Assembly: GCF_054482595.1 (NCBI RefSeq)
Contig: NZ_CM137008.1
Length of the DNA: 64,000 nucleotides
Strand: one strand, 5' to 3'
Both the position numbers and the translations under genes were made by a program. The notes under the pieces were generated by a model that saw only the letters and a program-made list of their open reading frames with translations, was not told where the DNA came from and did not search any database. Of the stretch, positions 29,997 to 48,508 are shown piece after piece. The stretch's first letter is position 1. The number at the start of each line of letters is the position of its first letter.

Positions 29997-30103
29997 GCAA
30001 TACCCGGAATGATGGTGCCGTTACGGGGAAGTCATCTTCACAGAAATTTTCAGTCCATTAGCATTCCGGTATTCGTACAACTTCCTTTGGTGGAGAGTAA
30101 ACA

Positions 30104-30433
30104 ATGACCAGGATGCGATGGACGCTTGACCAGAAAAAACATCACGTTGCTGCATGGCGTGCCAGTGGTCTTACACGCCAGCAATACTGTGAACTCAACG
30201 ATATTCCCTTCACATCACTTCGCGAATGGCCGCAGGATGTCGCAAAAGCTGAACGCCGGGCAAATGAACCGACCGTTCTTCCCGTTCATATTGCGCCACC
30301 ACTGCATGCTGATGTATCACAGCCCGTCACGAATGAGCCAGTCACGCTCTTCCTCCCCGGCGGAGTACGGATGTGCTGTCAGCCGTCACAACTTACCGAT
30401 GTCTTCAGGGCGCTCAAATGTGCTCAGTCCTGA
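30104..30433 (+). CDS. tnpA: IS66-family Orf1 (TnpA-like), 109 aa
   Basis: The position, the size and the WRASGLTRQQYCELNDIPFTSLREW HTH-like segment support the call. The stop overlaps the tnpB frame. Confidence 0.65.
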   Translation: MTRMRWTLDQKKHHVAAWRASGLTRQQYCELNDIPFTSLREWPQDVAKAERRANEPTVLPVHIAPPLHADVSQPVTNEPVTLFLPGGVRMCCQPSQLTDVFRALKCAQS

Positions 30434-30765
30434 TAATGTCTTCATCGCGATTAAACCTGCTGATATGCGCCGGGGCATCGACACACTGACGCAGTATATA
30501 CAGGATGAACTCAGGTCGACATGGCATGAGGGAGCCGCCTTCGTCTTTGTTAACAAAGCCCGTTCGCGTATCAAAGTTCTGCGCTGGGATAAACACGGGG
30601 TGTGGTTGTGTACCCGTCGTCTGCATAAAGGCAGCTTCCGCTGGCCACGTACAAATGACGTTGCCTGGCACCTCACTCCCGACGAGTTTAATTGGCTTAT
30701 TGCCGGTGTTGCCTGGCAGCAAGTTAAGGGACATGACCTGACGAAATGGGTCTGGCTGAATGAAG
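30399..30765 (+). CDS. tnpB: IS66 Orf2 (TnpB), no stop before the tnpC frame
   Basis: VFIAIKPADMRRGIDTLTQYIQDELRSTWHEGAAFVFVNKARSRIKVLRWDKHGVWL is the canonical TnpB core. The end coordinate is approximate. Confidence 0.7.
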
Positions 30766-31760
30766 CTGAACTGCGTGCTATGGCACTTGCCATGGTGCAA
30801 AAAGTCATGTCGGAGAATGCCGAAAAAGAGCGGGAATTACTGGAGAAAAGCCGGCGCATCCAGCTTCTGGACGAAATGCTGAAACTGGTTCGTCAACAGC
30901 GCTTCGGTAAAAATGTGAGACGCTGGCTGGTATGCAACGCTCCCTGTTCGAAGAGGATGTTGATGCCGATATCGCCGCGCTCACCGCACATCTGGATAAA
31001 CTGCTCCCGCAATCCCCTGAAGAAGACGAAAAAGCGCCCCGTTCATGCCCGATACGCAAACCCTTACCGGTCCATCTTCCACGGGTGGAAAAAATTATCC
31101 AGCCGGACACTGACCATTGCCCTGAATGTGACGAGCTGCTGCACTATATCCGTGATGCGGTGAGTGAAAAGCTGGAGTATATTCCCGCTCACTTCGTGGT
31201 GAACCGTTATGTCCGTCCGCAATACAGTTGTCCCTGTTGCCTGAAGGTGTTTAGCGGTGAAATGCCGGCACATATCCTCCCGAAAAGTGCCGTTGAGCCG
31301 TCAGTCATCGCACAGGTGATCATCAATAAATACAGTGACCACCAGCCTCTGTATCGCCAGCAACAGATCTTTGCCCGTTCAGATGTCGGGCTGCCCGTCA
31401 GTTCGATGGCTGATATGGTTGGCGCGTCGGGAGCCACATTATCCCCCCTGGCGGCGTTACTCCATCGCGAGTTGATAAGCCGTCAGGTGGTGCATGCAGA
31501 TGAGACTACCCTGAAGATCCTGAACACGAAGAAAGGCGGTAAATCCTGCTCCTGTTATCTGTGGGCATACGTCAGTGGAGAAAGGACAGGACCGTCAGTT
31601 GTGTGTTTCGACTGCCGGACCGGACGTAGCCATGAGTATCCTGAAAACTGGCTTCAGAGCTGGGTCGGGACACTGGTTGTTGACGGACATAAAGCTTACC
31701 GGACTCTGGCAAACAAAGTGCCGGAGATCACGCTGGCCGGATGCTGGGCCCATGTCAGTC
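30766..31760 (+). pseudogene. tnpC: IS66 tnpC, frameshifted and truncated
   Basis: EKERELLEKSRRIQLLDEMLKLVRQQRFGK, then after a frame change ETLAGMQRSLFEEDVD...HCPECDELLHYIRDAVSEKLEYIP...KYSDHQPLYRQQQIFAR...VVHADETTLKIL...GCWAHV. Confidence 0.8.
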
Positions 31761-32417
31761 ATGCCAGTGAAACTGGTGATGTAGTTCATGTCGATCAGTA
31801 GAGTGTTGGCACGCAGCAATACGCTGTCGTGGCTTGTTGTGGCCAACATGGTCAGAATGTCCTCTGTGAGATTTATGAAGGTTGTGCGAATGCGGGGGAA
31901 TCTGCTGAACGGTGCTTTCAGAGCTGGCCTGCTACGGGATACCCGGGATTACCTGCGAGGTAATGGGCTTCCGGATCGCACACCTCACGACGATCGCAGG
32001 CGAAATCACTGAATGCTCTTTGAGTATATCTTCGCTGTCAGGTAACCAATGAACCCGTTCCACATCCCGGGAGCTTCTGGTACTGCGCCGCTTCGTCCGG
32101 TGACACAAAGCTCTTACATTGCCCATGGCATCCATAATCAACTGCTCCAGAACAGGGGCATCGAAATACGCCTTTCGGGCACATCACACCACTTTATATT
32201 CCGGCATATCAGGAGCATAGTTCCGGGTCAGAAGTACCGGTCATCAGATCGAGCAGGATGTCAGTCAATGCTGCCCCCGGGATTAACTATGCAGAAACAG
32301 TCCTGAGACACAGACAAGATCAGAGACGACGCACGCGTGTGGTTGATTGACACCAACGTGCGGGTTCAGCGAATCAGCGATCACGGTGCGATTTCGCGCC
32401 ACAGTACACAATCAATA
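31761..32417. other. 0.66 kb of unassigned, multiply interrupted sequence (probable decayed mobile-element DNA)
   Basis: No ORF longer than 85 aa on either strand. Minus-strand frames give FDAPVLEQLIMDAMGNVRALCHR and ..VIPGIP.., which I cannot place confidently. Confidence 0.3.
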
Positions 32418-32790
32418 GTAAGCGTAAACTGACCGCCGTATGTAGCCATTAAGCCTGTATTGGTAACGTAGGTGCCCACTTTTTCAACTAGTGGACACCT
32501 GTTATGGAACAGAAAATATTATCCGCAGAACCCCGCAGAACATTTTCAAATGAGTTTAAACTTCAAATGGTTAAACTGGCTTCACAACCAGGAGCCTCTG
32601 TTGCCCGTATTGCCAGGGAACACGATATCAATGATAATCTTCTGCTCAAATGGCTCTGGCTGATCGGCCTTCCCCCACTTTTTACGCGAGGTGATTATGA
32701 AGATCAATGACTAGCCGTCGAACCGTGTGCATGAACTGCTGCACTGAAACTTCTCAGCTGTAAAGTAATCCTTACGCTACGTACTTCTCG
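32418..32790 (+). mobile_element. Internally deleted mini-IS66 (373 bp): both ends, ~50 codons of tnpA and the last codons of tnpC
   Basis: The left end is GTAAGCGTAAACTGACC (32418-). The tnpA' frame reads MEQKILSAEPRRTFSNEFKLQMVKLASQPGASVARIAREHDINDNLLLKWL (32504-~32655). The tnpC tail reads NRVHELL.*. The right end is ...GGAGCGCTTAC at 32790 (reverse complement GTAAGCGCTCC). Confidence 0.65.
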
Positions 32791-32908
32791 GAGCGCTTAC
32801 GATTAATCAGATGCAGTCCTGACTGGAAGAAAGAAAAATGGAAAAATAAGAGGAATTAATATATTCCACGTTCCTGAAATCCTGGAGGATATTAATGTCA
32901 TCAAAATA

Positions 32909-33855
32909 TTAGCGAACGATAATCCCTAACAAAATACCCAGTACGCCAAAGTCAGCATCACTGGAGGTGGTGTTAGCAAAACCAATATCATCCAGCACAG
33001 GCAATAAGAATACTGGCGGGAAGGTAATAGGCAAGCCTTGAGCGAAGGCACCCAAAATCGCACCACGACGTCCCCCCGTTGCATTACCGAATACCCCTGC
33101 AGTTGCACCTACGAAGAAGTGCGGCACCATACCAGGAATAATCACGATCATGTTCAGCAGATACAACGTGAACATACCGATTAAACCTGCAGCAAAGCTG
33201 CTCAGGAAACCAACCAGTATAGCGTTAGGTGCGTAAGGGAAGACGACCCGGGAATCGAGAGCTGGTCTGGCATTCGGAACCAGCTTGTCTGAAATACCTT
33301 TGAATGCCGGGACAATCTCCGCAATCACCATGCGCACACCCTGCAGAATGATGTAAACACCTGCTGCGAAGGTAATAGATTGCATGATGGAGAACATGAA
33401 CCAGTTTTTACCACCACTAAGCTCTTTCACCACATCTGCACGCGCAAACAGGCACGTCACCAGGAAAATTATGCTCATGGTAAAAGAGATAGCAACCGGC
33501 GTGTCGCGCAAGAACAGCAGACTTTTCGGCACATTCATGTCTTCAGTCGAGTGGTCTTTATTACCAAACTTGCTGCCGATGAAACCGGCCAATACATAAG
33601 ATAATGTTGAGAAGTGGCCGATGGCAACGTCATCAGAACCGGTCACTTTCTTCATGTACGGATGCGCAATAGCCGGGAAAAAGACCATTGCCACGCCAAC
33701 AACCAAAGAGCCAACGGCTATAAGCGTAATGCCGGTCATGCCTGCTGTTGCCAGAATTACCGCTACCATCATCGACATAAACAACGTGTGATGACCGGTC
33801 AGGAAGATAAATTTCCACGGTGTGAAACGGGCAATCAGAATGTTGATAACCATCA
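32909..33855 (-). pseudogene. 5'-truncated PTS ascorbate-family EIIC (UlaA/SgaT-like) gene
   Basis: INILIARFTPWKFIFLTGHHTLFMSMMVAV...QGVRMVIAEIVPAFKGISDKLVPNA...IIPGMVPHFFVGATAGVFGNATGG is collinear with UlaA from about residue 120 to the C-terminus. The N-terminal ~120 residues are absent. Confidence 0.7.
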
Positions 33856-34221
33856 GAAACGCTGGACTATCCCTCGGAAACGTTAGCTGAGATCCGCCAT
33901 ACCGGCGCACGAGCCGGGCTGGCATTTAATCCGGCGACCCCAATCGACGCCTGGCAATATCTGGCGTCTGAGCTGGACGGCGTGATGGTGATGACCTGTG
34001 AGCCCGATGGGCACGGACAGCGGTTTATTCCCTCTATGTGCGAGAAAATCCAAAAAGTACGCACGGCTTTTCCTCAGACCGAGTGCTGGGCCGACGGTGG
34101 AATTACGCTGGCGGCAGCACAGCAACTGGCTGCAGCCGGGGGGCAGCATATGGTGATTGGGCGCGTCTTGTTCTTTTCATCTGACTATCGCGCGACCTTA
34201 GTTCAATTCGCCACCCTGTAA
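33856..34221 (+). pseudogene. sgcE: 3' fragment of the pentulose-phosphate 3-epimerase gene sgcE
   Basis: ETLDYPSETLAEIRHTGARAGLAFNPATPIDAWQYLASELDGVMVMTCEPDGHGQRFIPSMCEKIQKVRTAFPQTECWADGGITLAAAQQLAAAG...ATLVQFATL* matches the C-terminal ~120 residues of K-12 SgcE. Confidence 0.8.
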
Positions 34222-34237
34222 GAGGAGATTGTTTCTG

Positions 34238-35020
34238 ATGAGCCAACAGAGACCTGACCGTATCAAACAGATGCTGCACTACCTGTGGCAACATCGTCAC
34301 CTCTCCACACAGCAGGCCATGGAGCTTTTTGGCTATGCGGAGGCGACTGTCCGTCGTGATTTTCAGTATATTGCCAACCAGTACCCAGGCATGATCCGCG
34401 GTCACGGTTGTCTCGACTTCGACGACAGTACTGACGACAAAGAGTACGTTTTCGATGTGAAACGTACATTGCAATCTGTGGCGAAGAGAGAAATAGTCGC
34501 CCTTGCCCGAACGATGATCAAAGATGGCGACTGCTTTTTTCTCGACTCCGGCTCAACCTGCCTCGAACTGGCGAAATGCCTGGCCGATGCACGGGTGAAG
34601 GTCTCCTGCAACGACATTAAAATCGCCAATGAGCTGGGCTGTTTTCCCCATGTGGAAAGCTATATTATCGGTGGACTGATTCGCCCGGGGTATTTTTCGG
34701 TAGGAGAGAGTCTGGCGCTGGAGATGATCAATGCCTTTTCCGTAGAACGTGCGTTTATCTCCTGCGATGCGCTGTCGCTGGAGACGGGGATCACCAATGC
34801 CACCATGTTTGAGGTCCGGGTGAAAACACGGATTATTCAACGCTCGCGTGAAGTTATTCTCATGGCCGAACACTCAAAATTTGATGCCGTTGAGCCGCAT
34901 GCTGTAGCAACACTCTCATGTATTAAAACGATCATTAGTGACAGCGGGTTACCTGAGACTATTGCACAGCGTTATCAGCGAGCCGGATGTCAGTTGTTTT
35001 TACCTCATTCAATAAAGTGA
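34238..35020 (+). CDS. sgcR: DeoR-family regulator SgcR, 260 aa
   Basis: MSQQRPDRIKQMLHYLWQHRHLSTQQAMELFGYAEATVRRDFQYI... is K-12 SgcR. Confidence 0.9.
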   Translation: MSQQRPDRIKQMLHYLWQHRHLSTQQAMELFGYAEATVRRDFQYIANQYPGMIRGHGCLDFDDSTDDKEYVFDVKRTLQSVAKREIVALARTMIKDGDCFFLDSGSTCLELAKCLADARVKVSCNDIKIANELGCFPHVESYIIGGLIRPGYFSVGESLALEMINAFSVERAFISCDALSLETGITNATMFEVRVKTRIIQRSREVILMAEHSKFDAVEPHAVATLSCIKTIISDSGLPETIAQRYQRAGCQLFLPHSIK

Positions 35021-35392
35021 TAGGTAAGTTCGTTCGAGAGGGATTTCAAGCAAAAACAATCAATGGCACCCAATAGAAAATATTGGCGATGTGCTCGAAC
35101 GAATAAAGAAGCCCTATGCGCAATCCACACGCTACGATGTTGCAACAACACTCCATCTACTTTTTATTCTCATTCACTAAATGTGGCTGTTCTGGATTCA
35201 TTATTCAAAGTGTGTACAAGATCACATTTAATCACTTCATTACGGTTCAGCATGCTGAACAAAGCATATTTTCCACTATGTAATGCCGATACCATTTATT
35301 CCATGAGCAAGGAGGAGCCATTATGGTTCGCAAAGGGGGTGATGCTGCCAACTTACTGATTTAGTGTATGATGGTGTTTTTGAGGTGCTCCA

Positions 35393-35668
35393 GTGGCTTC
35401 TGTTTCTATCAGCTGTCCCTCCTGTTCAGCTACTGACGGGGTGGTGCGTAACGGCAAAAGCACCGCCGGACATCAGCGCTATCTCTGCTCTCACTGCCGT
35501 AAAACATGGCAACTGCAGTTCACTTACACCGCTTCTCAACCCGGTACGCACCAGAAAATCATTGATATGGCCATGAATGGCGTTGGATGCCGGGCAACAG
35601 CCCGCATTATGGGCGTTGGCCTCAACACGATTTTACGTCACTTAAAAAACTCAGGCCGCAGTCGGTAA
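35393..35668 (+). CDS. insA: IS1 InsA, 91 aa
   Basis: [43 protein letters not shown]... Confidence 0.95.
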
Positions 35669-36090
35669 CCTCGCGCATACAACCGGGCAGTGACGTCATC
35701 GTCTGCGCGGAAATGGACGAACAGTGGGGCTATGTCGGGGCTAAATCGCGCCAGCGCTGGCTGTTTTACGCGTATGACAGGCTCCGGAAGACGGTTGTTG
35801 CGCACGTATTCGGTGAACGCACTATGGCGACGCTGGGGCGTCTTATGAGGCTGCTGTCACCCTTTGACGTGGTGATATGGATGACGGATGGCTGGCCGCT
35901 GTATGAATCCCGCCTGAAGGGAAAGCTGCACGTAATCAGCAAGCGATATACGCAGCGAATTGAGCGGCATAACCTGAATCTGAGGCAGCACCTGGCACGG
36001 CTGGGACGGAAGTCGCTGTCGTTCTCAAAATCGGTGGAGCTGCATGACAAAGTCATCGGGCATTATCTGAACATAAAACACTATCAATAA
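35587..36090 (+). CDS. insB: IS1 InsB frame (expressed as InsAB' by -1 frameshifting)
   Basis: ...[28 protein letters not shown]...[52 protein letters not shown]... Confidence 0.9.
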
Positions 36091-36319
36091 GTTGGAGTCA
36101 TTACCGAATCAACCTATGGTGCGGTATGTTTAAGTATGCCGGTATTCAATATGTATAACAGAGTTAACTATGCAATCTCACTTTCTGGCGATCCGGTAAT
36201 TTATTCAGGAAATAAGATAGACAGCTATCTGGAGTTGCTCCGGAAATGCACAGGGCAAATATCATATGGGCTGGGATACAGAAACGAAAATGAACATTTA
36301 CGAAAAGGAAACTGAGGTA

Positions 36320-37225
36320 ATGAAAAAATTCAGCGGCATTATTCCACCGGTATCCAGCACGTTTCATCGTGACGGAACCCTTGATAAAAAGGCAATGCGC
36401 GAAGTTGCCGACTTCCTGATTAATAAAGGGGTTGACGGGCTGTTTTATCTGGGTACCGGTGGTGAATTTAGCCAGATGAATACAGCCCAGCGCATGGCGC
36501 TCGCCGAAGAAGCTGTAACCATTGTCGACGGGCGAGTGCCGGTATTGATTGGCATCGGTTCCCCTTCCACTGACGAAGCGGTCAAACTGGCGCAGCATGC
36601 GCAAGCCTGCGGCGCTGATGGTATCGTCGCCATCAACCCCTACTACTGGAAAGTTGCGGCGCGGAATCTTGACGACTACTACCAGCAGATCGCCCGCAGC
36701 GTCACACTGCCGGTGATCCTGTACAACTTTCCGGATCTAACCGGTCAGGACTTAACCCCGGAGACCGTGAAACGTCTGGCACTGCAAAATGAAAATATCG
36801 TCGGCATCAAAGACACCATCGACAGCGTCGGCCATCTGCGCACGATGATCAACACCGTTAAGTCTGTACGTCCGTCATTTTCGGTATTCTGCGGCTTCGA
36901 CGACCATTTACTGAATACCCTGCTGCTGGGCGGCGATGGCGCGATATCCGCCAGCGCTAATTTTGCTCCGGAACTCTCTGTCGGTATCTACCGCGCCTGG
37001 CGCGAGGGCGATCTGGCAACTGCCGCCACCCTGAATAAAAAGCTCCTGCAACTGCCCGCGATTTACGGCCTTGAAACGCCGTTTGTCTCACTGATCAAAT
37101 ACAGCATGCAGTGCGTGGGGTTGCCGGTGGAGACATATTGCCTGCCGCCGATTCTTGACGTCTCAGAAGAAGCCAAAGAAAAAGTCCACGCACTGCTGGC
37201 CGCGCAGGGCATTTTATCGGACTGA
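36320..37225 (+). CDS. yjhH: 2-dehydro-3-deoxy-D-pentonate aldolase, 301 aa
   Basis: MKKFSGIIPPVSSTFHRDGTLDKKAMREVADFLINKGVDGLFYLGTGGEF... is K-12 YjhH (DapA/NanA-family aldolase). Confidence 0.9.
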   Translation: MKKFSGIIPPVSSTFHRDGTLDKKAMREVADFLINKGVDGLFYLGTGGEFSQMNTAQRMALAEEAVTIVDGRVPVLIGIGSPSTDEAVKLAQHAQACGADGIVAINPYYWKVAARNLDDYYQQIARSVTLPVILYNFPDLTGQDLTPETVKRLALQNENIVGIKDTIDSVGHLRTMINTVKSVRPSFSVFCGFDDHLLNTLLLGGDGAISASANFAPELSVGIYRAWREGDLATAATLNKKLLQLPAIYGLETPFVSLIKYSMQCVGLPVETYCLPPILDVSEEAKEKVHALLAAQGILSD

Positions 37226-37235
37226 GGAGAAGATC

Positions 37236-39203
37236 ATGTCTGTTCGCCATATTTTTGCTGACGAAAGTCGCGATATCTACACCGTCAGAACCCACGCCGA
37301 TGGCCCTGACGGAGAACTGCCGCTTACGGCGGAAATGCTCATCAACCGCCCGAGCGGGGATCTGTTCGGGATGACCATGAATGCCGGAATGGGCTGGTCC
37401 CCAGACGAACTGGATCGGGACGGTATTCTACTGCTCAGCACGCTGGGAGGGTTACGCGGGGCAGACGGTAAGCCCATCGCGCTGGCGCTGCACCAGGGTC
37501 ACTACGAGCTGGATATCCAGATGAAAGCGGCCGCGGAGGTCATCAAAGCGAACCGTGTCCTGCCCTATGCCGTGTATGTTTCCGATCCGTGCGACGGACG
37601 AACTCAGGGTACGACGGGTATGTTTGACTCGCTACCGTACCGTAATGACGCCGCCATGGTGATGCGTCGTCTAATCCGCTCTCTGCCCGATGCGAAAGCC
37701 GTCATTGGCGTGGCGAGCTGCGACAAGGGACTTCCGGCCACCATGATGGCACTTGCCGCGCAGCATGACAAAGCGACGGTGCTGGTGCCCGGTGGCGCGA
37801 CGCTACCCGCAAGGGATGGGGAGGATAACGGCAAGGTGCAGACCATCGGCGCCCGCTTCGCCAATGGCGAGTTATCGCTACAGGATGCCCGCCGTGCGGG
37901 TTGTAAAGCCTGCGCCTCCTCCGGCGGCGGCTGTCAATTTCTGGGCACCGCCGGGACATCGCAGGTCGTAGCCGAAGGATTAGGACTGGCCATCCCGCAC
38001 TCAGCACTGGCCCCTTCCGGCGAACCGGTGTGGCAGGAGATAGCCAGAGCCTCCGCGAAGGCGGCGTTGAACTTATGTAAACAAGGCATCACCACCCGGG
38101 AAATACTCACCGATAAAGCGATTGAGAATGCGATGACGGTCCATGCGGCGTTCGGTGGTTCAACAAATCTGTTGCTGCATATTCCGGCGATTGCCCATCA
38201 GGCCGGCTGCCATATTCCAACCGTTGACGACTGGATCCGCATCAACAAGCGGGTGCCCCGACTGGTAAGCGTACTCCCCAATGGTCCGGTTTATCACCCG
38301 ACAGTGAATGCCTTCATGGCGGGAGGTGTGCCGGAGGTGATGCTGCATCTTCGTAGTCTGGGATTGCTGCATGAAGACGTGATGACGGTCACCGGCAGCA
38401 CGCTGAAAGAAAACCTGGACTGGTGGGAGCATTCCGAACGGCGTCAGCGGTTCAAACAGCTTCTGCGCGAACAGGAGCAGATCGATGCCGACGAGGTGAT
38501 CATGTCGCCACAGCGGGCACGGGAGCGCGGCCTGACCTCAACGATCACTTTCCCGGTGGGCAATATTGCCCCGGAAGGGTCGGTTATCAAATCCACCGCC
38601 ATCGATCCCTCGGTGATTGATGATCGGGGCATCTATTACCATAAAGGCGTGGCGAAGGTTTATCTGTCCGAGAAAAGCGCGATTTACGATATCAAGCACG
38701 AGAAGATTAAAGCGGGCGATATTCTGGTCATCATCGGCGTTGGCCCTTCCGGCACCGGGATGGAGGAAACCTACCAGGTCACCAGCGCCCTGAAACATCT
38801 GTCCTATGGCAAGCATGTTTCACTGATCACCGATGCGCGTTTCTCGGGTGTTTCCACGGGAGCCTGTATCGGCCACACAGGGCCAGAAGCACTGGCCGGA
38901 GGGCCAATCGGTAAATTACGCACCGGAGATATTATTGAAATTAAAATTGATTGTCGCGAGCTTCAGGGCGAAGTCAATTTCCTCGGAACCCGTAACGATG
39001 AAACATTACCCTCACGGGAGGAGGCCACCGCAATATTAAACGCCCGACCCAGTCATCAGGATTTACTTCCTGATCCTGAGCTGCCCGATGACACCCGACT
39101 CTGGGCGATGCTCCAGGCGGTAAGCGGCGGGACATGGACGGGTTGTATTTATGATGTAAATAAAATCGGCGCGGCCTTGCGCGATTATATGAATAAGAAC
39201 TGA
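37236..39203 (+). CDS. yjhG: D-xylonate dehydratase (IlvD/Edd family), 655 aa
   Basis: MSVRHIFADESRDIYTVRTHADGPDGELPLTAEMLINRPSGDLFGMTMNAGMGW... is K-12 YjhG. Confidence 0.9.
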   Translation: MSVRHIFADESRDIYTVRTHADGPDGELPLTAEMLINRPSGDLFGMTMNAGMGWSPDELDRDGILLLSTLGGLRGADGKPIALALHQGHYELDIQMKAAAEVIKANRVLPYAVYVSDPCDGRTQGTTGMFDSLPYRNDAAMVMRRLIRSLPDAKAVIGVASCDKGLPATMMALAAQHDKATVLVPGGATLPARDGEDNGKVQTIGARFANGELSLQDARRAGCKACASSGGGCQFLGTAGTSQVVAEGLGLAIPHSALAPSGEPVWQEIARASAKAALNLCKQGITTREILTDKAIENAMTVHAAFGGSTNLLLHIPAIAHQAGCHIPTVDDWIRINKRVPRLVSVLPNGPVYHPTVNAFMAGGVPEVMLHLRSLGLLHEDVMTVTGSTLKENLDWWEHSERRQRFKQLLREQEQIDADEVIMSPQRARERGLTSTITFPVGNIAPEGSVIKSTAIDPSVIDDRGIYYHKGVAKVYLSEKSAIYDIKHEKIKAGDILVIIGVGPSGTGMEETYQVTSALKHLSYGKHVSLITDARFSGVSTGACIGHTGPEALAGGPIGKLRTGDIIEIKIDCRELQGEVNFLGTRNDETLPSREEATAILNARPSHQDLLPDPELPDDTRLWAMLQAVSGGTWTGCIYDVNKIGAALRDYMNKN

Positions 39204-39309
39204 AAGCAAAAATAAAAACATCCAGACACCTGAATTATCCGGTTACGCATTATTCATCCTGTGCGCAGCCGGATAATGACGGGTCGTTACCCTATGATGA
39301 GAGGACGTT

Positions 39310-40659
39310 ATGCCACTAATTATCGTTGTGGCAGGGATTGCTTTACTCCTGCTTTTAACCATAAAAATTAAGCTTAATACGTTTGTTTCGTTAATTATTG
39401 TCTCGATTGCTGTCGCCATCGCCAGTGGTATGGATTTGAGTAAAGTCGTCACCTCAGTCGAATCCGGACTTGGCGGTACGCTGGGCCATATTGGTTTGAT
39501 ATTTGGGTTCGGTGTTATGCTCGGTCGCTTGCTGGCCGATGCGGGGGGGGCGCAGCGAATAGCGCTGACCATGCTGAATTATTTCGGGAAAAATAAACTT
39601 GACTGGGCAGTGGTCTGTTCGGCGTTTATTGTCGGTATCGCACTTTTTTTCGAAGTCGGTTTAATTCTTCTGGTACCTATTTTATTCGCTATTGCCCGTG
39701 AAGCAAAAATATCACCGATGTTTATGTGTGTGCCGATGCTTTCCGGTTTGCTGGTCGCACACGGTTTTTTGCCGCCGCACCCCGGCCCGACAGTAATCGC
39801 CAGAGAATATGGTGCTGATGTAGGATTGGTACTGATATACGGTATCATTGTCGGCATTCCAACCTTTATTCTTTGCGGCCCGGTATTGAATAAATTCTGC
39901 CAGCGCATTATTCCGGAAGCCTTTAAAAAAGAGGGGAATATAGCCTCTCTCGGCGCGACCCGCCGGTTCAGCGAAAGCGAAATGCCTGGCTTTGGGATCA
40001 GTTTTCTCACGGCAATGCTGCCGGTGATCCTGATGGCGGTTGTCACCATCATCCAGATGACTCATGCCAAAAGTGCCGCGGATTCAGGCTTATTCTACAA
40101 CGTGCTACTGTTCTTAGGTAATTCGACGATCGCCATGCTGATTTCACTGCTGTTCGCGATCTATACCATGGGCCTGGGGCGCGGGAAAACAATCCCTGAC
40201 CTGATGGATTCTTGCGGAAAAGCTATCGCGGGTATTGCCGGTCTGCTGCTGATTATCGGTGGTGGTGGTGCATTCAAGCAAGTTCTCATCGACTCTGGCG
40301 TTGGTCAGTATATTTCCACCCTGGTTTCGGGTATGGATATTAACCCGATCCTGATGGCCTGGGGCGTGGCCGCATTCCTGCGTATTTGTCTGGGTTCAGC
40401 CACCGTCGCGGCGATCTCTACCGCCGGTCTGGTCATCCCATTGTTGGCAGTACATCCCAATACCAACCTGGCCTTGATTACGCTGGCTACCGGTGCCGGA
40501 TCCTGTATTTGTTCTCACGTTAACGATGCCAGTTTCTGGATGATTAAAGACTTTTTTGGCCTGACCACCAAAGAAACGCTGTTATCCTGGACGCTGATGT
40601 CCACACTCTTATCCATCAGTGGGCTGATTTTTATTCTGCTCGCCAGCTTAGTTTTATAA
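39310..40659 (+). CDS. yjhF: GntP-family permease, 449 aa
   Basis: [42 protein letters not shown]... is K-12 YjhF. Confidence 0.9.
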
Positions 40660-40810
40660 TCGGGTTCTTGCCAGTGAGCCAACCTGTTGTTCACTGTCCC
40701 CCATAATTTAGTGAGTGACGGCAACCGTCTGCACGGTGACGAATCGCTGGCGATCAAAAAGGGGCGATATTGAACCGTCGATTATGCTTGTTGAGTGTAC
40801 TCTCAGTAAT

Positions 40811-40845
40811 ACTGTAAAGCCGGAGCATGTCTCCGGCTTTACAGT
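40811..40845. terminator. 15-bp-stem hairpin downstream of yjhF
   Basis: ACTGTAAAGCCGGAG-catgt-CTCCGGCTTTACAGT. Confidence 0.6.
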
Positions 40846-41005
40846 ATGGGGGAACAGCGGGAGATCGCTCAAATGGTATGCTGGTTTATTTCATGTAAAA
40901 GAATAAAATATCTGTATAAAATCATGCCACTGGCAATCTGCATCAACTCTCCGGGTAAACAGGGTTAAGATGAGCATTTCCCCGGTTTAATACAGGTATA
41001 CAAAA

Positions 41006-41992
41006 GTGGATAGAGATCAAACAAACAGCAGCCTGTTCAATGATGATCCCGTACTTCATGCAACATGGCTGTACTATCAGGAAGGCAAAAGCCAGACTGA
41101 AGTTGCAGCTATCATGGGGGTGTCCCGCGTCACGGTTGTCAAATACCTGCAAACAGCCCGGGAAAATGGACTGGTTCATATCAACCTGGATGTGAATGTC
41201 TTTGGCTCTATCGACGCTGCTTTGCAAATTCGCGATAAATTCAATCTCCTGAGAGTGATCATCGTGCCGGATGGCGAACATGCCGGAAAACGTGATGATA
41301 CAAAGCTGATGCGGACTCGCCTTTCACGTGCCGGTGGCATGTATCTGAATCAGGTGATTGAGAATGGTGATGTGCTGGGGGTTGCCTGGGGAAGAACAAT
41401 CCATCAGATGAGCAAAACCATGACGCCGAAGTCATGTAAAAATGTCACCGTTATACAGATGCTCGGTTCCATGCCATCTCAGCCAGACCTGACGATCATT
41501 GAATCCTCATCGCAAATCGCCTACAAGCTTTCAGGCCGTGTCGCTTCGCTGCACGTGCCCGCCGTGGTATCAAGCGCCAGACTGGCCATGGAGTTACAGG
41601 CAGAGCCTATTATTCGATCGAATTTTGACGTTCTGACTCGCTGTACGAAAGCCTTTTTTGTCGTGGGTAACACGCTTGATGAAAATCCCCTGATTCGGGT
41701 GGGCGTGCTGAATAAGAAGGAAATGCAGACGTATCGAGATTTAGGCGCAGTAGGTGTCATTTGTGGCCGCTTCTATGACAAGGAAGGGATGCCCGTCGTG
41801 GCTGATGTTGACCAGCGTATTCTGGGAATCAGTCTGGCTCAGTTAAGGCAGATTGAACGGAAGATCTTTCTTGCTGGTGGCGAAAGAGGCTATGACGCAA
41901 CGTTGGGTGCCTTGCTGGGAGGATATGTCACTGACCTGATTGTTGATGAAGGAACGGCAGAGTTTTTGCTGGCGTGTGAATTACCACACTAA
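41006..41992 (+). CDS. yjhU: SorC-family transcriptional regulator, 328 aa (GTG start)
   Basis: DRDQTNSSLFNDDPVLHATWLYYQEGKSQTEVAAIMGVSRVTVVKYLQTARENGLVHINL... is K-12 YjhU. Confidence 0.88.
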   Translation: MDRDQTNSSLFNDDPVLHATWLYYQEGKSQTEVAAIMGVSRVTVVKYLQTARENGLVHINLDVNVFGSIDAALQIRDKFNLLRVIIVPDGEHAGKRDDTKLMRTRLSRAGGMYLNQVIENGDVLGVAWGRTIHQMSKTMTPKSCKNVTVIQMLGSMPSQPDLTIIESSSQIAYKLSGRVASLHVPAVVSSARLAMELQAEPIIRSNFDVLTRCTKAFFVVGNTLDENPLIRVGVLNKKEMQTYRDLGAVGVICGRFYDKEGMPVVADVDQRILGISLAQLRQIERKIFLAGGERGYDATLGALLGGYVTDLIVDEGTAEFLLACELPH

Positions 41993-42032
41993 AAGAATGA
42001 ACAACTGCCCCATGTGGATATGGGGCAGGATT

Positions 42033-43037
42033 TTATTGATTAGCGGCGATAATAAGAACAATACCCACAATGTATGAAATAAACATAGTCAGCAGCAGTT
42101 TATTGGTTCCGGCTGGCGCACTGGCAAATTCTCTCCAGATGAAGACTCCCCAGATCACGGCAATCATTGTGGCACCCTGTCCCAGACCGTAGGAAATGGC
42201 ATAACCCGCCTGACCAGACGCAATCAAACTGAATGCCAGACCGACACACCAAATCATACCGCCCAGCCAGCCGCAAACATGATCCCGTAAACTCCCGGAA
42301 AAATACATTTTCCTGTAGACCGGTTCTCCTGAAATAGGCTTTTTCATGACCAGCGTGTTAAGGACAAAGTTCGACAAAAACAGCCCCACTGCAAACAGAA
42401 CAAGTGCTGAGTACGGCGTCATCAGACCGCTGGCAGGCTGGCTGAAATTGTCAGACATGGAGTCCGCCAGGAAGCGGAAAAACCATCCCATGATGATACC
42501 CGCAAGAATGGCAGTGATGAGGCCTTTGTTACGGCGAGATTTATCCGCCTCCTGCGTGACACGGCCATAGGCTATCGCGGTAAAAATAATGGCGATCACA
42601 ACGCAGGCGACACCGAGGAACAGAATGAGCGGATCGCCCTGCGGATTGCCGATATAGGTGGTGATCACACCCAGAGCCAGTGCCAGCCCCACCCCCACAG
42701 GAAAAGCTACCGCCATACCGGCAAGATTAATAGAAGCCACCAGAAGAATATTGGAAATATTGAAGATAATCCCTGCCAGTATTGCCGACATCAGACTACT
42801 GCTGCTCGCCTGCTGAATATCAGGTATAAAGCTGCGACCGGCTTCGCCCATAGAACCCAGAGTGAAGGCAAATAACAAAGAACACAGCAATAATCCAATT
42901 GAATAATCCCAATAGAATAGAGGGAACTCCCATTTTTTATTACTGACAAGTTTAGTTGTATTCGCCCATGAACCCCAGCAAATCATGGTAATAAAACACA
43001 TTATTATGGCGACAGCATACGATTCCACGATAAACAT
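42033..43037 (-). CDS. 10-TM sugar-type transporter of the DMT superfamily (GRP/RbsU/GlcU-like), 334 aa
   Basis: It has two repeated 5-TM halves, and the loop RVTQEADKSRRNKG splits them. It is the last gene downstream of the mtnK-mtnA-ald2 cluster on the same strand. Confidence 0.6.
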   Translation of the reverse strand: MFIVESYAVAIIMCFITMICWGSWANTTKLVSNKKWEFPLFYWDYSIGLLLCSLLFAFTLGSMGEAGRSFIPDIQQASSSSLMSAILAGIIFNISNILLVASINLAGMAVAFPVGVGLALALGVITTYIGNPQGDPLILFLGVACVVIAIIFTAIAYGRVTQEADKSRRNKGLITAILAGIIMGWFFRFLADSMSDNFSQPASGLMTPYSALVLFAVGLFLSNFVLNTLVMKKPISGEPVYRKMYFSGSLRDHVCGWLGGMIWCVGLAFSLIASGQAGYAISYGLGQGATMIAVIWGVFIWREFASAPAGTNKLLLTMFISYIVGIVLIIAANQ

Positions 43038-43140
43038 AAATAACTCCTTGTGGTAGTTACAATCAATCGTTGTGGACAGAGGGCATAACAGCCATTCCTC
43101 GAATGGCTGTTATATGTTATTAATTAAAATAAAGCTGTAA

Positions 43141-43782
43141 TTACGCTTTCAAACCATACGTTTTGAATTTTTCAAGAACGATGGTCATTTCGGCTTCAGA
43201 CAGAACGGGAACATCGTGATGTAATCCGCCACATTTGATGTATAAATCAGCCAGCGTCTCAGTTTCACCCGCCAGCCACAACGTCTTTTCCAGCGTGACG
43301 TCCATGGCCAGCATACCGTGGTGCTGCATCAGTAAGGACTTACTTTCTCTGATTCCTTGAGATACACTGTCGGCCAGTTCAGGGCTGCCAAAGGTATAAT
43401 AGGGAATACAGGGAATATGATCCGTCCCCGATACCGCCACCATATAATGAATAGCCGGAATTGAATGATTATGTATTGCCACCGCCGTGGAATTCACCGC
43501 ATGCGTATGTATGACAGCATTCAATTCTGGTCTGGCTTTATAACACGCCAGATGAAATAGCCATTCACTTGATGGTATTTTACCCGCTTCAGGTATTCCC
43601 TTATCGTCTACAAAGACAATCATGTCCGGCGTCATCTTTGAATAAGCGATCCCACTCGGTGTAATCAACATGCCACCGGTATATCTGGCACTCACATTAC
43701 CTGATGTTCCTTGATTCAGACCTGACGCATTCATTTCCCGACAAATGGAAATGATATTTTCTGCTAACTTAATCCTTTCCAT
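43141..43782 (-). CDS. ald2: Class II aldolase (FucA/adducin fold): 5-deoxyribulose-1-P / methylthioribulose-1-P aldolase of the DHAP shunt, 213 aa
   Basis: GLNQGTSGNVSAR, SSEWLFHL, VIHTHAVNSTA and MQHHGMLA are the zinc and phosphate motifs of class II aldolases. It is adjacent to mtnA and mtnK. Confidence 0.75.
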   Translation of the reverse strand: MERIKLAENIISICREMNASGLNQGTSGNVSARYTGGMLITPSGIAYSKMTPDMIVFVDDKGIPEAGKIPSSEWLFHLACYKARPELNAVIHTHAVNSTAVAIHNHSIPAIHYMVAVSGTDHIPCIPYYTFGSPELADSVSQGIRESKSLLMQHHGMLAMDVTLEKTLWLAGETETLADLYIKCGGLHHDVPVLSEAEMTIVLEKFKTYGLKA

Positions 43783-43812
43783 TACTGCTCCTTAACAGAA
43801 GTGATCGTCGTT

Positions 43813-44928
43813 TTAATGCAGCTCGTCCTGGAGTGCTTTACTCTTCAGGTCAGCAAACATATCCGCCAGAGCTGACTTACTGGCAGCACAGACTCCCCGT
43901 TCAGTAATGAGGCCGGTAATGTATCGGGCAGGCGTGACGTCGAAAGCGTAGTTCCCACAACGGGTTCCTTCAGGGGCGGTATTGACCCAGCTCAATTCTC
44001 CCTGAGTATTTATCCCATAGACATGGGACTGCTCTTTTCCGTCACGTTGCTCAATCGGAATGGTTTTTCCGTCCTCGATAGTCCAGTCAATAGTGGGAGA
44101 AGGTAACGCGACGTAGAAGGGAACATGGTTATCATGGGCCGCCAGCGCCTTAAGATAGGTACCAATTTTATTACAGACATCCCCTCTGGCCGTGGTTCGA
44201 TCGGTCCCCACTATACAGAGATCAACGTCACCGTGTTGCATCAGGTGGCCACCCGCATTGTCGGCAATCAGGGTGTGAGGAATACCGTGTGAACCCAGTT
44301 CAAATGCCGTGAGTCCACCCTGATTACGTGGCCGCGTTTCATCCACCCAGACGTGAACAGGGATTCCGTTTTCATGCGCTTTATAGATGGGAGAAAGCGC
44401 GGTTCCCCAGTCTACAGTCGCCAGCCAGCCTGCGTTACAATGTGTCAGGATATTGACCACACTCCCGGCCGATTTTTTCTGGGCTATTTCGCGGATGACT
44501 TCTGCACCATGTAATCCAATTTGTTCACACAACGCGACATCTTCCTCGGCAATTTCTGCCGCCAGCGCCCAGGCCACATCCTTGCGCTCTGATACACAGA
44601 GATCCTTCAGTGTGGCTATCATCCTGTCGAGAGCCCATTTGAGGTTAATTGCAGTTGGTCGGGTTTTGATAAGAAGGTCATAGTAACGCTGCAGACCTAC
44701 GTCACTGGCATTGTGGTTCATTCCCAGTGCGATACCATATGCCGCAACGACACCAATAAGCGGGGCGCCACGAACCCACATCTCCTGAATAGCCGCAGCG
44801 GCCATTTCCGCAGAGGTAAGCGCCACCACTTCAAACTTAAAAGGCAGCTTAGTCTGATCGATGATCTCTACCGCTTTTCCATCCCCGGAAACCCAGACCG
44901 TTCGGTAGTGTTTACCTTTAATATTCAT
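43813..44928 (-). CDS. mtnA: S-methyl-5-thioribose-1-phosphate (5-deoxyribose-1-P) isomerase, 371 aa
   Basis: [92 protein letters not shown] are eIF-2B/MtnA-family blocks. Confidence 0.85.
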
Positions 44929-44937
44929 AATGACCTC

Positions 44938-46197
44938 TTACTTAACCTTCGCAGACTGGATGACGGAGTCCATATTTTTAAACTGGCGGGCATTGACAAT
45001 AAGATCGCGCGCCATGGTCAATGCACGTCGTTCACATTCTGCGCGAAGCTCTGTATTTTCAATCTGTTTCAGCTCGGCAACGCCAGCAAAACCAATGATC
45101 CGGCGATTCATTTCCATGCCGGCATTCACCAGGGAATCTTCAAGCAGCGTGGCAAAAAACTGATCCTGTGCGTCCTCAAGAGCGGCCCTGTTCTGTTGAT
45201 ACATTTCTGTCGGCCACGCGTCACCCTGTGTTTTGTTGTCCCAGAGCTGGCGGAACTCCCGGGTGAAAACTGACCAGGTGTGGACAATCTGCTGAAGTAG
45301 CCATTCCTGATAGTCAGCGCGACGTTGCTCATTTGCATCCCACCCAGGGCGTGAGAAGAACGCCAGCAGGAGGTTGCCAATATAGTTGCCGATATCAAAC
45401 GCCATTGGTCCCATGAAACCGAACTCCGGATCAATCACTTTGGTATCCGTGTCGGTCACCATGATTGAGCCTGAATGAAGGTCACCATGTAACAATGCCT
45501 GCGCTTCTGTCATAAATTTGTACTTATAACGCATGGCAACCTGGAGCATCTCTACATCAGCCCAGGCCTTATGGACGGCATCGTCCAGCTCAGGAGAAGT
45601 CCAGTTATTCCGTTCCGCGTTGTAATAGGGCTCTGTGAAGATCAGATCTTCCGTAATTTTGCACAGCTCATGATTTAACGCGAACTCAGCAGTAAGCGCT
45701 TTTTTCTGTTCTGCTGACATGCCAATGTCAGACGTATTAAAGAGAGTCTGTGCTAAAAATCTGCCGATATCTTCAGCTAGCTTAGGGAATTTTTTACCGT
45801 TAATCAGTCCCTTACGCAGAATTACGTGAGGCGTCAAATACTCCATGGCAAACAGTGCCATTTCCGGGTCATAAAAATAGACCTGGGGAATCAGTGTGTG
45901 ACCCGCGTACTTGGCTTCCTGACATAAGACGTTGTACTCAAAGCCCGCACGGCTCAGAGATAAAGGCCATCCTTCGCCCCCTGCACGAAGCCAGGGCAGA
46001 GCTTGTTTTACAATGATGGTTTTATGTGTCCCCTTAACGATAAACACCATGTTCAGGTTTCCGTCCCCCACTTCTGAAACTTTCCACTCTTCTGGTAACC
46101 CTCCCGGTTCGCATGAAGGGGTCAGTCTGGACGAGAGATAACCAGGCAGCGTGTCACATGTCAGCGGCTTGTAACCTGATGGAATTGAATCCGTCAT
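44938..46197 (-). CDS. mtnK: Methylthioribose / 5-deoxyribose kinase, 419 aa
   Basis: EVGDGNLNMVFIV, HGDLHSGSIMV and IDPEFGFMGPMAFDIG are the MtnK (APH-like kinase) signatures. There is a 9-bp gap to mtnA. Confidence 0.85.
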   Translation of the reverse strand: MTDSIPSGYKPLTCDTLPGYLSSRLTPSCEPGGLPEEWKVSEVGDGNLNMVFIVKGTHKTIIVKQALPWLRAGGEGWPLSLSRAGFEYNVLCQEAKYAGHTLIPQVYFYDPEMALFAMEYLTPHVILRKGLINGKKFPKLAEDIGRFLAQTLFNTSDIGMSAEQKKALTAEFALNHELCKITEDLIFTEPYYNAERNNWTSPELDDAVHKAWADVEMLQVAMRYKYKFMTEAQALLHGDLHSGSIMVTDTDTKVIDPEFGFMGPMAFDIGNYIGNLLLAFFSRPGWDANEQRRADYQEWLLQQIVHTWSVFTREFRQLWDNKTQGDAWPTEMYQQNRAALEDAQDQFFATLLEDSLVNAGMEMNRRIIGFAGVAELKQIENTELRAECERRALTMARDLIVNARQFKNMDSVIQSAKVK

Positions 46198-46699
46198 AAC
46201 AGTTCTCCTTGTCTACACAGAATGATAACTGACTTATCATATGGCAACTATACTTTATCATGTGTAAAGTAATTTGTGATGCATGTAGATTTTTTGAACT
46301 GGAGAAAATTAAAAATAATGTTGTATGGAGTCATGATCTTTACAGGAATTAGTAGGGTGCATTCCTGTTATTTATATAAAATTCATTGTATTACATAAAA
46401 ATGACGGTGCTGCGCGGGGAATTGTCTCGGGCAATCTTAGACGAAAGGAAGTATTGAAGTGACAGAATAATCTACATTTTTTATACATGTGTATTTTTCT
46501 GTTGTCTTTTGTTTTTAGCGTATGGTGTTTTTATGCCGATGTCTAATAGACAGATAGATTCGAGGGCCAACAGCCCCATTATCATGATGGAGCAACAGAG
46601 GTGAGTCTAACGTTTCCGTACTTCTTATCGATCGGCACTAACAATCCTTTGTGATAACGGTATTCCCACACAGAGAAACCCACGTACCTGAATAAAAAA

Positions 46700-47131
46700 A
46701 AGATTACTGGTGTGGAAATGGGATTAACAGATTATGCCATCAAATCGGATGGTAATGAGGTCAATAATCCTCGTCATCTCATTAACGTCAACTGTAATCT
46801 GCGACGCAAATTAGCCAGCATGATGAATAACAAACACAATCTGGCAAGAGCGTTAGGTGATGCTGATTGGCACGGCTTTATCAACAAACTGGAGTACAAG
46901 GCAGCCGAAAAAGGCGTTCATCTGGTAAAAATCGACCAGTAGTTTGTCTGTTCGAAAAGCTGCTATTGTTGTGGTTACAAAATGTCGCTTCAAAAACGGA
47001 TCTGGCGATGCCCTGAATGCGGTGTTGAACATGACCGGGATATAAATGCGGCAATCAACATAAAACTTAAAGACATACAGGAATTAAAGGCGGCGGGCCC
47101 CGTCGTCTCTGTCTATGGAGGAGCTGCGTAA
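46700..47131 (+). pseudogene. tnpB: IS200/IS605-family tnpB (OrfB) C-terminal remnant, interrupted
   Basis: GVEMGLTDYAIKSDGNEVNNPRHL...ARALGDADWHGFINKLEYKAAEKGVHLVKIDQ*, then ..CCGYK....RIWRCPECGVEHDRDINAAINIKL. These are the RuvC-II/III and zinc-finger blocks of TnpB. The N-terminal two-thirds is missing. Confidence 0.7.
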
Positions 47132-47395
47132 ACCCGTCGTACAGACGGTTGCAGCCTGAAAAGTGGGAAGGCCTTGCCCGATTGGGCGGGGAGTAGTCAC
47201 CCTTGGAGTCATTTTTATCCGGTGTATTAATATGCTCCTAATAGTTAATCTGGTTATAATATTTTTTTTTTGATTATGATCACGAAAATATCTCGGTTTT
47301 TATTTGCAAAACTTGAAACGTGAATCCAAAAAAGATAAATATTTGTCCGCAGTGACTTCTTTTCTGTTGAAAAGTTCAATCTAAAGGGCAAAAAA

Positions 47396-48508
47396 ATGAA
47401 AAAAATTACAGTGGCACTTTCTGTGGTTGCGGCATCTGTTCTGATGGCAATGTCTGCACAAGCGGCAGAAATCTATAACAAAGACGGTAACAAACTGGAT
47501 CTGTACGGCAAAGTTAATGCAGAGCATTACTTCTCTTCTTCAGCTAGTGATGACGGGGATAAAACTTATGCTCGTATGGGTTTCAAAGGTGAAACTCAGA
47601 TTAATGACCAGTTAACCGGTTTTGGTCAGTGGGAGTACGAATTTAAAGGTAACCGTACTGAAACTGAAGGTTCTGATAAAGATAAAACTCGTCTTGCGTT
47701 TGCAGGGCTTCGCTTTGGCGATTATGGTTCGCTCGACTATGGTCGCAACTACGGTGTAGCTTATGATGTTGGCGCTTGGACTGACGTGCTGCCGGAGTTT
47801 GGTGGAGATACCTGGACTCAGACTGATGTATTTATGACCCAGCGTGCTACTGGCGTAGCGACCTATCGTAACAATGATTTCTTCGGCTTGGTTGATGGTC
47901 TGAACTTTGCTTTGCAGTATCAAGGTAAAAATGATAGTGCTGCAAAAGTGAATAACTGGAAAGGCCGTGACGAAGTTGAATCTAATGGTGATGGCTTTGG
48001 TCTGTCAGCTACTTACGATTATGAGGGATTTGGCGTTGCTGCAACCTATGCAAAATCTGACCGTACTGATGGGCAGGTATCCTATGCTAAAGACAGCCCT
48101 CTGAATGCCTCTGGTAAAACTGCTGAAGTATGGGCTACGGGCCTGAAATATGATGCAAACAACATTTACCTGGCTGCAACTTATTCTGAAACTCAGAATA
48201 TGACAGTCTTCGGTGATGACCATATCGCAAACAAAGCGAAAAACTTTGAAGCTGTTGCTCAATACCAGTTTGATTTCGGCTTGCGTCCGTCCATCGCTTA
48301 CCTACACTCTCGCGGTGAAAATATTGGTGCGTTCGGTAACCAGGATCTAGTTGAATACATCGACGTAGGTGCGACTTATTACTTCAACAAAAATATGTCC
48401 GCTTTCGTTGACTACAAGATCAACCTGATTGATGAAAGTGAATTTACCAAAGCATCTGAGGTTGCAACCGACAACATCGTTGCTGTTGGTATGACCTACC
48501 AATTCTAA
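47396..48508 (+). CDS. General porin of the OmpC/OmpF/NmpC family, 370 aa
   Basis: The signal peptide is [40 protein letters not shown]. It has [37 protein letters not shown] and the C-terminal ..VAVGMTYQF. Hairpins follow directly. Confidence 0.9.

Follow-up and report, generated by a model that had tools for sequence, protein, structure and literature searches.

The dihydroxyacetone phosphate (DHAP) shunt of Escherichia coli, encoded by mtnK, mtnA and ald2, has been characterised for alleles located on the leuX island; a cluster of the same composition in a stretch of 64,000 nucleotides of contig NZ_CM137008.1 (RefSeq assembly GCF_054482595.1; the whole stretch is called the window below), on an island joined to a tRNA-Phe gene, raises the question of what this copy is, what the carrier encoded by its fourth gene transports, where its repressor binds and how the cluster came to lie on a different island. 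With high confidence the DHAP-shunt operon of E. coli, mtnK-mtnA-ald2-carrier, is present here as an intact copy, together with the convergent repressor gene yjhU/mtnR. The pathway lets E. coli use the ubiquitous by-products of S-adenosylmethionine metabolism as a carbon source and is enriched in extraintestinal pathogens.

The operon occupies one strand with intergenic gaps of 9, 30 and 103 nt. On the minus strand, mtnK (44938-46197, 419 aa, TIGR01767) encodes a 5-methylthioribose/5-deoxyribose kinase, mtnA (43813-44928, 371 aa, TIGR00512) an isomerase that acts on 5-methylthioribose-1-phosphate and on 5-deoxyribose-1-phosphate, ald2 (43141-43782, 213 aa, PF00596) a class II aldolase paralogous to FucA, and the fourth gene (42033-43037, 334 aa) a 10-helix carrier of the DMT/GRP family, a putative 5-deoxypentose porter. 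The gene yjhU, identical with mtnR, codes for a SorC-type repressor with a PF04198 domain and a helix-turn-helix (HTH) motif; it lies on the plus strand (41006-41992), converges with the operon at a distance of 40 nt and is adjoined on its left by yjhF, yjhG and yjhH. Between the convergent yjhU and carrier genes a hairpin with a 10-bp stem (42005-42028) is a likely bidirectional terminator. A sequence-only reading of the window had proposed an intact shunt trio followed on the same strand by a 334-aa carrier, beside yjh genes, and the open reading frames lie exactly where it placed them.

The assignment of the enzymes is based on profile searches and on comparison with strain SE15, which serves as reference for the leuX-type allele because its 799-bp spacer and upstream open reading frame WP_000788354 match the description of ATCC 25922 (PMC12632272). 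MtnK reaches 521 bits against the TIGR01767 equivalog (cut-off 275) and MtnA 411 bits against TIGR00512 (cut-off 279), and the amino-acid identities between window and SE15 are 98.6% for MtnK, 97.0% for MtnA, 98.1% for Ald2, 99.4% for the carrier and 99.1% for YjhU; the trio, with equivalog cut-offs exceeded by two enzymes and 97-99% identity to the leuX-type proteins, is thus the DHAP shunt, as had been supposed. The alternative that the aldolase is a FucA orthologue unrelated to the shunt, named in that reading as a possible refutation, fails: Ald2 matches PF00596 and aligns over its full length with the E. coli FucA structures (270 bits), and since its score of 314.7 bits against the fucA equivalog TIGR01086 is under the cut-off of 400.25, the gene is distinct from fucA and its product a paralogue of FucA. 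In profile searches YjhU matches PF04198 with 264.8 bits and HTH models at residues 21-57, while its best NCBIfam match, the Bacillus-type DeoR, stays at 209 bits, under the cut-off of 420.

For near-identical alleles the pathway is established (PMC10986504, PMC12632272): 5-deoxyribose arises from 5'-deoxyadenosine, and 5-methylthioribose from methylthioadenosine, through cleavage by Pfs, MtnK then adds a phosphate to C1 of these sugars, MtnA isomerises the products to the ribulose-1-phosphates, and Ald2 releases DHAP and acetaldehyde or 2-methylthioacetaldehyde, hence the growth on these substrates. With the genes of ATCC 25922, each of 5-deoxyribose, methylthioadenosine and 5'-deoxyadenosine can serve for growth (Huening et al. 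2024, PMC10986504). 5-Deoxyribose induces the permease gene jointly with those of the three enzymes, about 7.5 log2-fold and with equal read depth, as an operon; its main transcription start, P1, precedes mtnK by 72 bp (Huening et al. 2025, PMC12632272). According to the same study, YjhU, renamed MtnR, is a repressor relieved by substrate, a 126-bp fragment confers MtnR-dependent control, cAMP-CRP is needed for transcription and CRP binds the promoter fragment, efeU is de-repressed in an mtnR mutant, and the semi-palindrome CAAAT-N-ATTTG was suggested as the MtnR site. Co-transcription of the carrier and repression by YjhU, raised as open ideas from the sequence, are therefore largely published already; the system is rated as already known because all five components and their regulation, including the enzymes, the operon structure and both regulators, have been published for an allele 97-99% identical, and the window adds little on the working of the system. 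From this identity the window allele would be expected to encode the same enzyme activities and to allow growth on 5-deoxyribose or methylthioadenosine.

The carrier, annotated in RefSeq as a GRP family sugar transporter, passes the Pfam gathering thresholds of PF07168 (69 bits versus 27) and PF06800 (30.9 versus 26.3), and its AlphaFold model (predicted local distance difference test 80, predicted template-modelling score 0.83) contains 10 long helices, in agreement with the GRP/RbsU-like protein of ten transmembrane segments anticipated from the sequence. With Foldseek probability 1.0 the model matches the CMP-sialic acid transporter (6i1r), LicB (7paf) and 5i20, taken to be the exporter YddG, at TM-scores of 0.53-0.60; Vrg4 is also among the DMT-fold transporters matched. 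Homologues are very widespread, with about 60% identity across phyla, and the genomic context of distant homologues was surveyed in 80 loci from distant taxa. A PfkB ribokinase is immediately adjacent in 63 of these and an ADP-ribosylglycohydrolase occurs in 37, large proteins provisionally read, with no profile search, as SusC-like and SusD-like occur in about 10 loci each, and none of the 80 contains relatives of MtnK, MtnA, Ald2 or YjhU within 10 kb (E <= 1e-10). The four homologues examined at 62-72% identity, from Aeromonas, Salmonella and two metagenomic contigs, are all flanked by PfkB kinases. The arrangement mtnK-mtnA-ald2-carrier with a convergent SorC regulator is found only with carrier homologues at least 85% identical. 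They make up a narrow clade of enterobacteria, with members in Klebsiella oxytoca and Providencia rettgeri, on an Escherichia-like contig and in two further lineages; this five-gene module, yjhU included, is kept in Klebsiella, Providencia and the two further lineages in unrelated chromosomal neighbourhoods. All shunt-linked carriers have G88A and N127T, where the ribokinase-linked members show 97-100% conservation. These observations point to a ribose porter that would have been recruited into the operon and adjusted for ribose analogues lacking the 5-hydroxyl, and on this basis the fourth gene probably encodes a proton-coupled or facilitative derivative of ribose porters that helps the cell to take up 5-deoxyribose or methylthioribose, probably when little of them is present, and that is not needed at millimolar concentrations. 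From the comparison comes the first concrete argument as to which class of substrate the permease carries and which residues to mutate.

What weighs against this reading is that a plasmid with mtnK-mtnA-ald2 alone enables K-12 to grow on 5 mM 5-deoxyribose, no further factors being needed (PMC10986504); another uptake route must therefore exist and the carrier is not essential. The same growth would fit a carrier that is an unchanged ribose or general pentose porter, merely travelling with the operon and contributing nothing specific to the use of 5-deoxypentoses, as would the ribokinase-linked position of its nearest relatives outside the clade and the fact that, among strongly conserved positions, only G88A and N127T distinguish the shunt-linked proteins. 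Such a passenger, however, would not be expected to be co-transcribed with the enzymes under the induction by 5-deoxyribose described above, to stay in the module across at least five lineages or to be the most constrained gene of the operon: the ratio of nonsynonymous to synonymous divergence between the two E. coli alleles (dN/dS) is 0.03 for the carrier, the lowest among the operon genes, and its cross-genus identity is 85-88%, versus 73-84% for the enzymes, with 89-92% for the regulator. An unmodified pentose porter is consequently an unlikely, though not negligible, explanation.

The binding site of MtnR was approached by phylogenetic footprinting, with an alignment of six sequences upstream of mtnK that represent five distinct lineages. 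The conserved block consists of two 14-bp palindromes of the form TTnnCAYRTGnnAA, whose centres precede the mtnK ATG by 64.5 and 43.5 bp. Box A (46255-46268, minus strand), a candidate half of the MtnR operator with the palindrome TTTACACATGATAA, is an exact match to TTNNCAYRTGNNAA and its position is conserved in the five lineages; box B (46234-46247, minus strand), with the palindrome TTGCCATATGATAA, lies 21 bp away, centre to centre. The pattern has no other exact match in the 64 kb. In 1.3 Mb of unrelated loci, taken as background, exact matches occur at 0.004 per kb. Each of the five lineages has at least one exact box no further than 90 bp from the mtnK ATG, and in most cases a near-copy lies 21 bp from it. 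Box A starts 1 bp downstream of the position that matches the published P1 (window position about 46269), and both boxes are inside the 126-bp fragment that gives MtnR-dependent control. The box sequence is not known to be related to the published operators of DeoR and CggR. A TCACA pentamer in the P1 region (46275-46279, minus strand), possibly a CRP half-site, is kept in five of the six aligned sequences and reads TCATA in the sixth (L092). The footprinting would narrow the MtnR site to two specific boxes, and it is suggested, tentatively, that MtnR binds both palindromes, over and just downstream of the transcription start.

Several observations count against this proposal. The published CAAAT-N-ATTTG overlaps box A with its right arm, which is ACATG in the window allele; the second box is degenerate in two of the five lineages, which are the only ones available; and no box, even with up to two mismatches allowed, is found in the 542 bp upstream of efeU, so that either the de-repression of this gene is indirect or the motif is incomplete. 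Moreover, the enrichment of the boxes is not an independent test, because the pattern was defined on the same sequences in which it was later counted. Additional CATATGAT-like boxes are present further upstream of mtnK in two non-Escherichia lineages, at about 223-243 bp in L092 and about 208-232 bp in L093, which hints at a distal operator and DNA looping; in E. coli distal boxes were not seen above the scan threshold.

The sequence-only reading had drawn attention instead to an inverted repeat, ATGATAA-N5-TTATCAT (46222-46240), just upstream of mtnK. The repeat is indeed present, within the 5' untranslated region of mtnK and 25-43 bp ahead of the ATG, and if it were itself the MtnR operator or a functional hairpin of the leader RNA, its perfect arms in the window, the preservation of 6/7 pairs with one mismatch in the leuX allele and its position inside the MtnR-responsive fragment would be accounted for. 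Its significance, however, was rejected on chance expectation and poor conservation: perfect repeats with 7-bp arms and loops of 3-8 nt number 64 in the window, about one per kb, and at least one occurs in 20% of shuffles of the 503-bp AT-rich spacer; in the alignment, the right arm TTATCAT was not found outside Escherichia (in Klebsiella, Providencia and the two other lineages), and the left arm, which belongs to the conserved block, is the right half of box B. The fold of the 80-nt leader RNA is no more stable than those of its shuffles (z = +0.57), and no Rfam match was obtained at E <= 1 in 41000-48000; on the same two grounds a riboswitch or other leader RNA upstream of mtnK was discarded as a separate candidate. 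A role of the inverted repeat in its own right is accordingly improbable, the repeat as such is probably not the MtnR operator, and the two-box arrangement is the best current candidate.

As regards the MtnR gene itself, K-12 (locus L095, E. coli BW25113, 3107-4904, corresponding to window 41900-42090) retains yjhU and a 58-nt piece of the carrier gene's 3' end, and this remnant is followed directly by IS1F and then by the fec genes. According to the published idea, all E. coli keep mtnR in order to regulate other genes; the remnant suggests an alternative.

The least probable function of the carrier, a very doubtful one, is export of end products (2-methylthioethanol, acetaldehyde-derived compounds) or of excess 5-deoxypentoses, as performed by many DMT proteins: the match to the DMT-fold structure 5i20 and the reported accumulation of 2-methylthioethanol outside cells using methylthioadenosine would agree with it, but RbsU and GlcU, the GRP members that have been characterised, serve for uptake, family members beside ribokinases stand in an uptake context, and an operon that is induced to consume a substrate would gain nothing by exporting it. 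The ald2-carrier spacer (43038-43140, 103 nt) contains a hairpin with a 13-bp stem (43085-43113) that recurs in Klebsiella and Providencia, and a near-invariant stretch of 40 nt where pairing between ATAACT and AGTTAT is possible, spanning the Shine-Dalgarno sequence of the carrier gene. This structure could set the ratio of enzyme to carrier expression; covariation support for the hairpin is essentially none (covariation term 0.08).

The location of the cluster is a point on which the window extends the published description. The only tRNA gene in the window, detected by ARAGORN, is an intact tRNA-Phe (GAA) at 59626-59701 on the minus strand; it is identified as pheV because yqgA, speC and nupG lie on its far side and a tyrosine recombinase directly on its island side. 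The recombinase, the integrase of the island, occupies 58148-59413 on the minus strand, as annotated in RefSeq for strain Santai, in which this stretch is identical. The attachment of the island to pheV, as first read from the sequence, is therefore upheld. No second copy of the tRNA 3' end, that is, no distal direct repeat, is present in the window, and the island runs past the window start.

The comparison of attachment sites among carrier strains, which had been proposed as a check, was made for several of the carriers among complete E. coli genomes. The operon, or most of it, is present in 1084 of 5426 genomes and the window allele with its porin neighbour in 12 of the 5426, about 1% of the operon carriers; the hosts of this allele include duck, mink, chicken-farm, environmental and human isolates, and the yjhH-yjhU stretch is single-copy in every listed record, 11 of the 12 allele carriers among them. 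Strain 4FM has a pheV junction identical to that of the window, while in GTEN_97 and CDE2901 the same island is next to a tRNA-Phe flanked by dicD, dsbD, cutA and dcuA, a site taken to be pheU; the match to strain Santai ends 23 nt into the tRNA, and another island follows there. The window allele is thus found on tRNA-Phe islands, at pheV (window, 4FM) or pheU (GTEN_97, CDE2901), and not at leuX. The cluster had been stated to lie "invariably" at the end of the leuX island (PMC12632272), a claim contradicted by the tRNA-Phe island of the window as a matter of location and not of function. In the literature searched, no mention was found of DHAP-shunt cargo on tRNA-Phe islands. The block exists as two alleles at two kinds of tRNA site, of which the tRNA-Phe version is separate and rarer; the cluster is consequently not confined to the leuX island, and a diverged allele is carried by an island able to occupy pheV or pheU.

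The extent of the divergence was estimated by alignment with the common allele, to which the operon DNA is about 96.5-96.9% identical (about 3.5% divergence). By BLAST against SE15, the block shared with the leuX island of extraintestinal pathogenic E. coli (ExPEC) spans 33851-46646 and includes the 3' part of sgcE, sgcR, yjhI/H/G/F and yjhU, as well as the operon with some 450 bp of the sequence that precedes mtnK. The block is broken at 35337-36106 by the insertion sequence IS1 with its transposase, which replaces about 565 bp of yjhI in comparison with Santai and SE15; the IclR-type regulator of the yjhHG xylonate genes is in this way disrupted in the window genome. From yjhH to yjhU (36300-41990) the window is about 93% identical to the leuX-type genomes, against about 96.5% for the mtn genes, and yjhF and yjhU differ by only 1.0-1.3% from SE15; the block has the look of a mosaic in which presumably yjhG/H hold most of the divergence, and it may have come from a different Escherichia lineage. 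A degraded TnpB gene of the IS200/IS605 type (46641-47159) is located exactly at the end of the leuX homology (46646), and IS66 fragments and truncated phosphotransferase system (PTS) genes are found on the left side, near 30000-33900, which suggests that the block was moved by IS-mediated or illegitimate recombination. Divergent from mtnK and 1.2 kb upstream of it is a gene for an OmpC-family porin (47396-48508; 532 bits versus a cut-off of 484), a second porin of this family that occurs only in the tRNA-Phe-island version of the locus. The rest of the island (window 1-33000) contains genes for a citrate lyase alpha subunit, an AcnB-type aconitase, a MalX-type PTS protein, DcuC and an amidohydrolase, ISL3 and IS66 elements, and a gene annotated as enterotoxin in RefSeq.

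Taken as a whole, the comparison allows a broader proposal, which must be worded with reserve: the carrier might be the first dedicated importer of 5-deoxyribose and/or 5-methylthioribose, having evolved within Enterobacterales out of ribose porters linked to ribokinase, by a handful of substitutions (G88A, N127T) at sites that do not otherwise vary, and being part of a five-gene module (operon plus MtnR with a two-palindrome operator) that may move as one unit between species and between leuX and tRNA-Phe islands.

Among known systems, the closest is the operon of ATCC 25922 and other ExPEC (PMC10986504, PMC12632272), in which the four genes, their order, the convergent yjhU and the neighbouring yjhF/G/H are all the same, with the layout of SE15. 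The promoter-proximal 250 bp of the leuX-type allele align with the window without gaps, although the proposed CAAAT...ATTTG element is not conserved in the window allele. The differences concern the surroundings: the leuX-type operon is at the end of the leuX island and that of the window on the tRNA-Phe (pheV) island, and beyond about 450 bp upstream of mtnK the window has the TnpB remnant and the extra OmpC-type porin gene, in contrast to the 799-bp spacer and a glycosyltransferase fragment in the leuX type.

The island itself resembles the tRNA-Phe (pheV/pheU) islands of E. coli (e.g. PMC11537424) in the P4-type integrase directly downstream of an intact tRNA-Phe, in its occurrence at either pheV or pheU and in its mosaic structure rich in insertion sequences; it differs from them in its cargo, which is metabolic (citrate lyase, AcnB-like aconitase, PTS, yjh genes and the DHAP shunt). 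MtnR has in common with the SorC-family sugar-phosphate repressors, such as B. subtilis DeoR, CggR and LsrR, an N-terminal HTH and the PF04198 sugar-binding domain, and its promoter would resemble theirs if the two candidate palindromes, two helical turns apart near the transcription start, act as operators.

The carrier shares with the glucose/ribose porter (GRP) family of the DMT superfamily, for example RbsU of Latilactobacillus sakei, the 10-helix DMT fold and the PF06800/PF07168 profiles, and the gene content around its homologues at 53-72% identity matches that of the Rus loci of Bacteroidota (bioRxiv 10.1101/574913); the likeness to RusT (BT2809) and RbsU derives from family profile, fold and gene context. 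In the Rus loci the loss of the permease RusT slows growth on ribose and does not abolish it (bioRxiv 10.1101/574913), and a growth that is slowed and not blocked is the phenotype expected here for 5-deoxyribose. In contrast to the GRP and Rus permeases, which are linked to ribokinases, the clade of the window carrier (at least 85% identity) is linked to mtnK-mtnA-ald2 and carries G88A and N127T.

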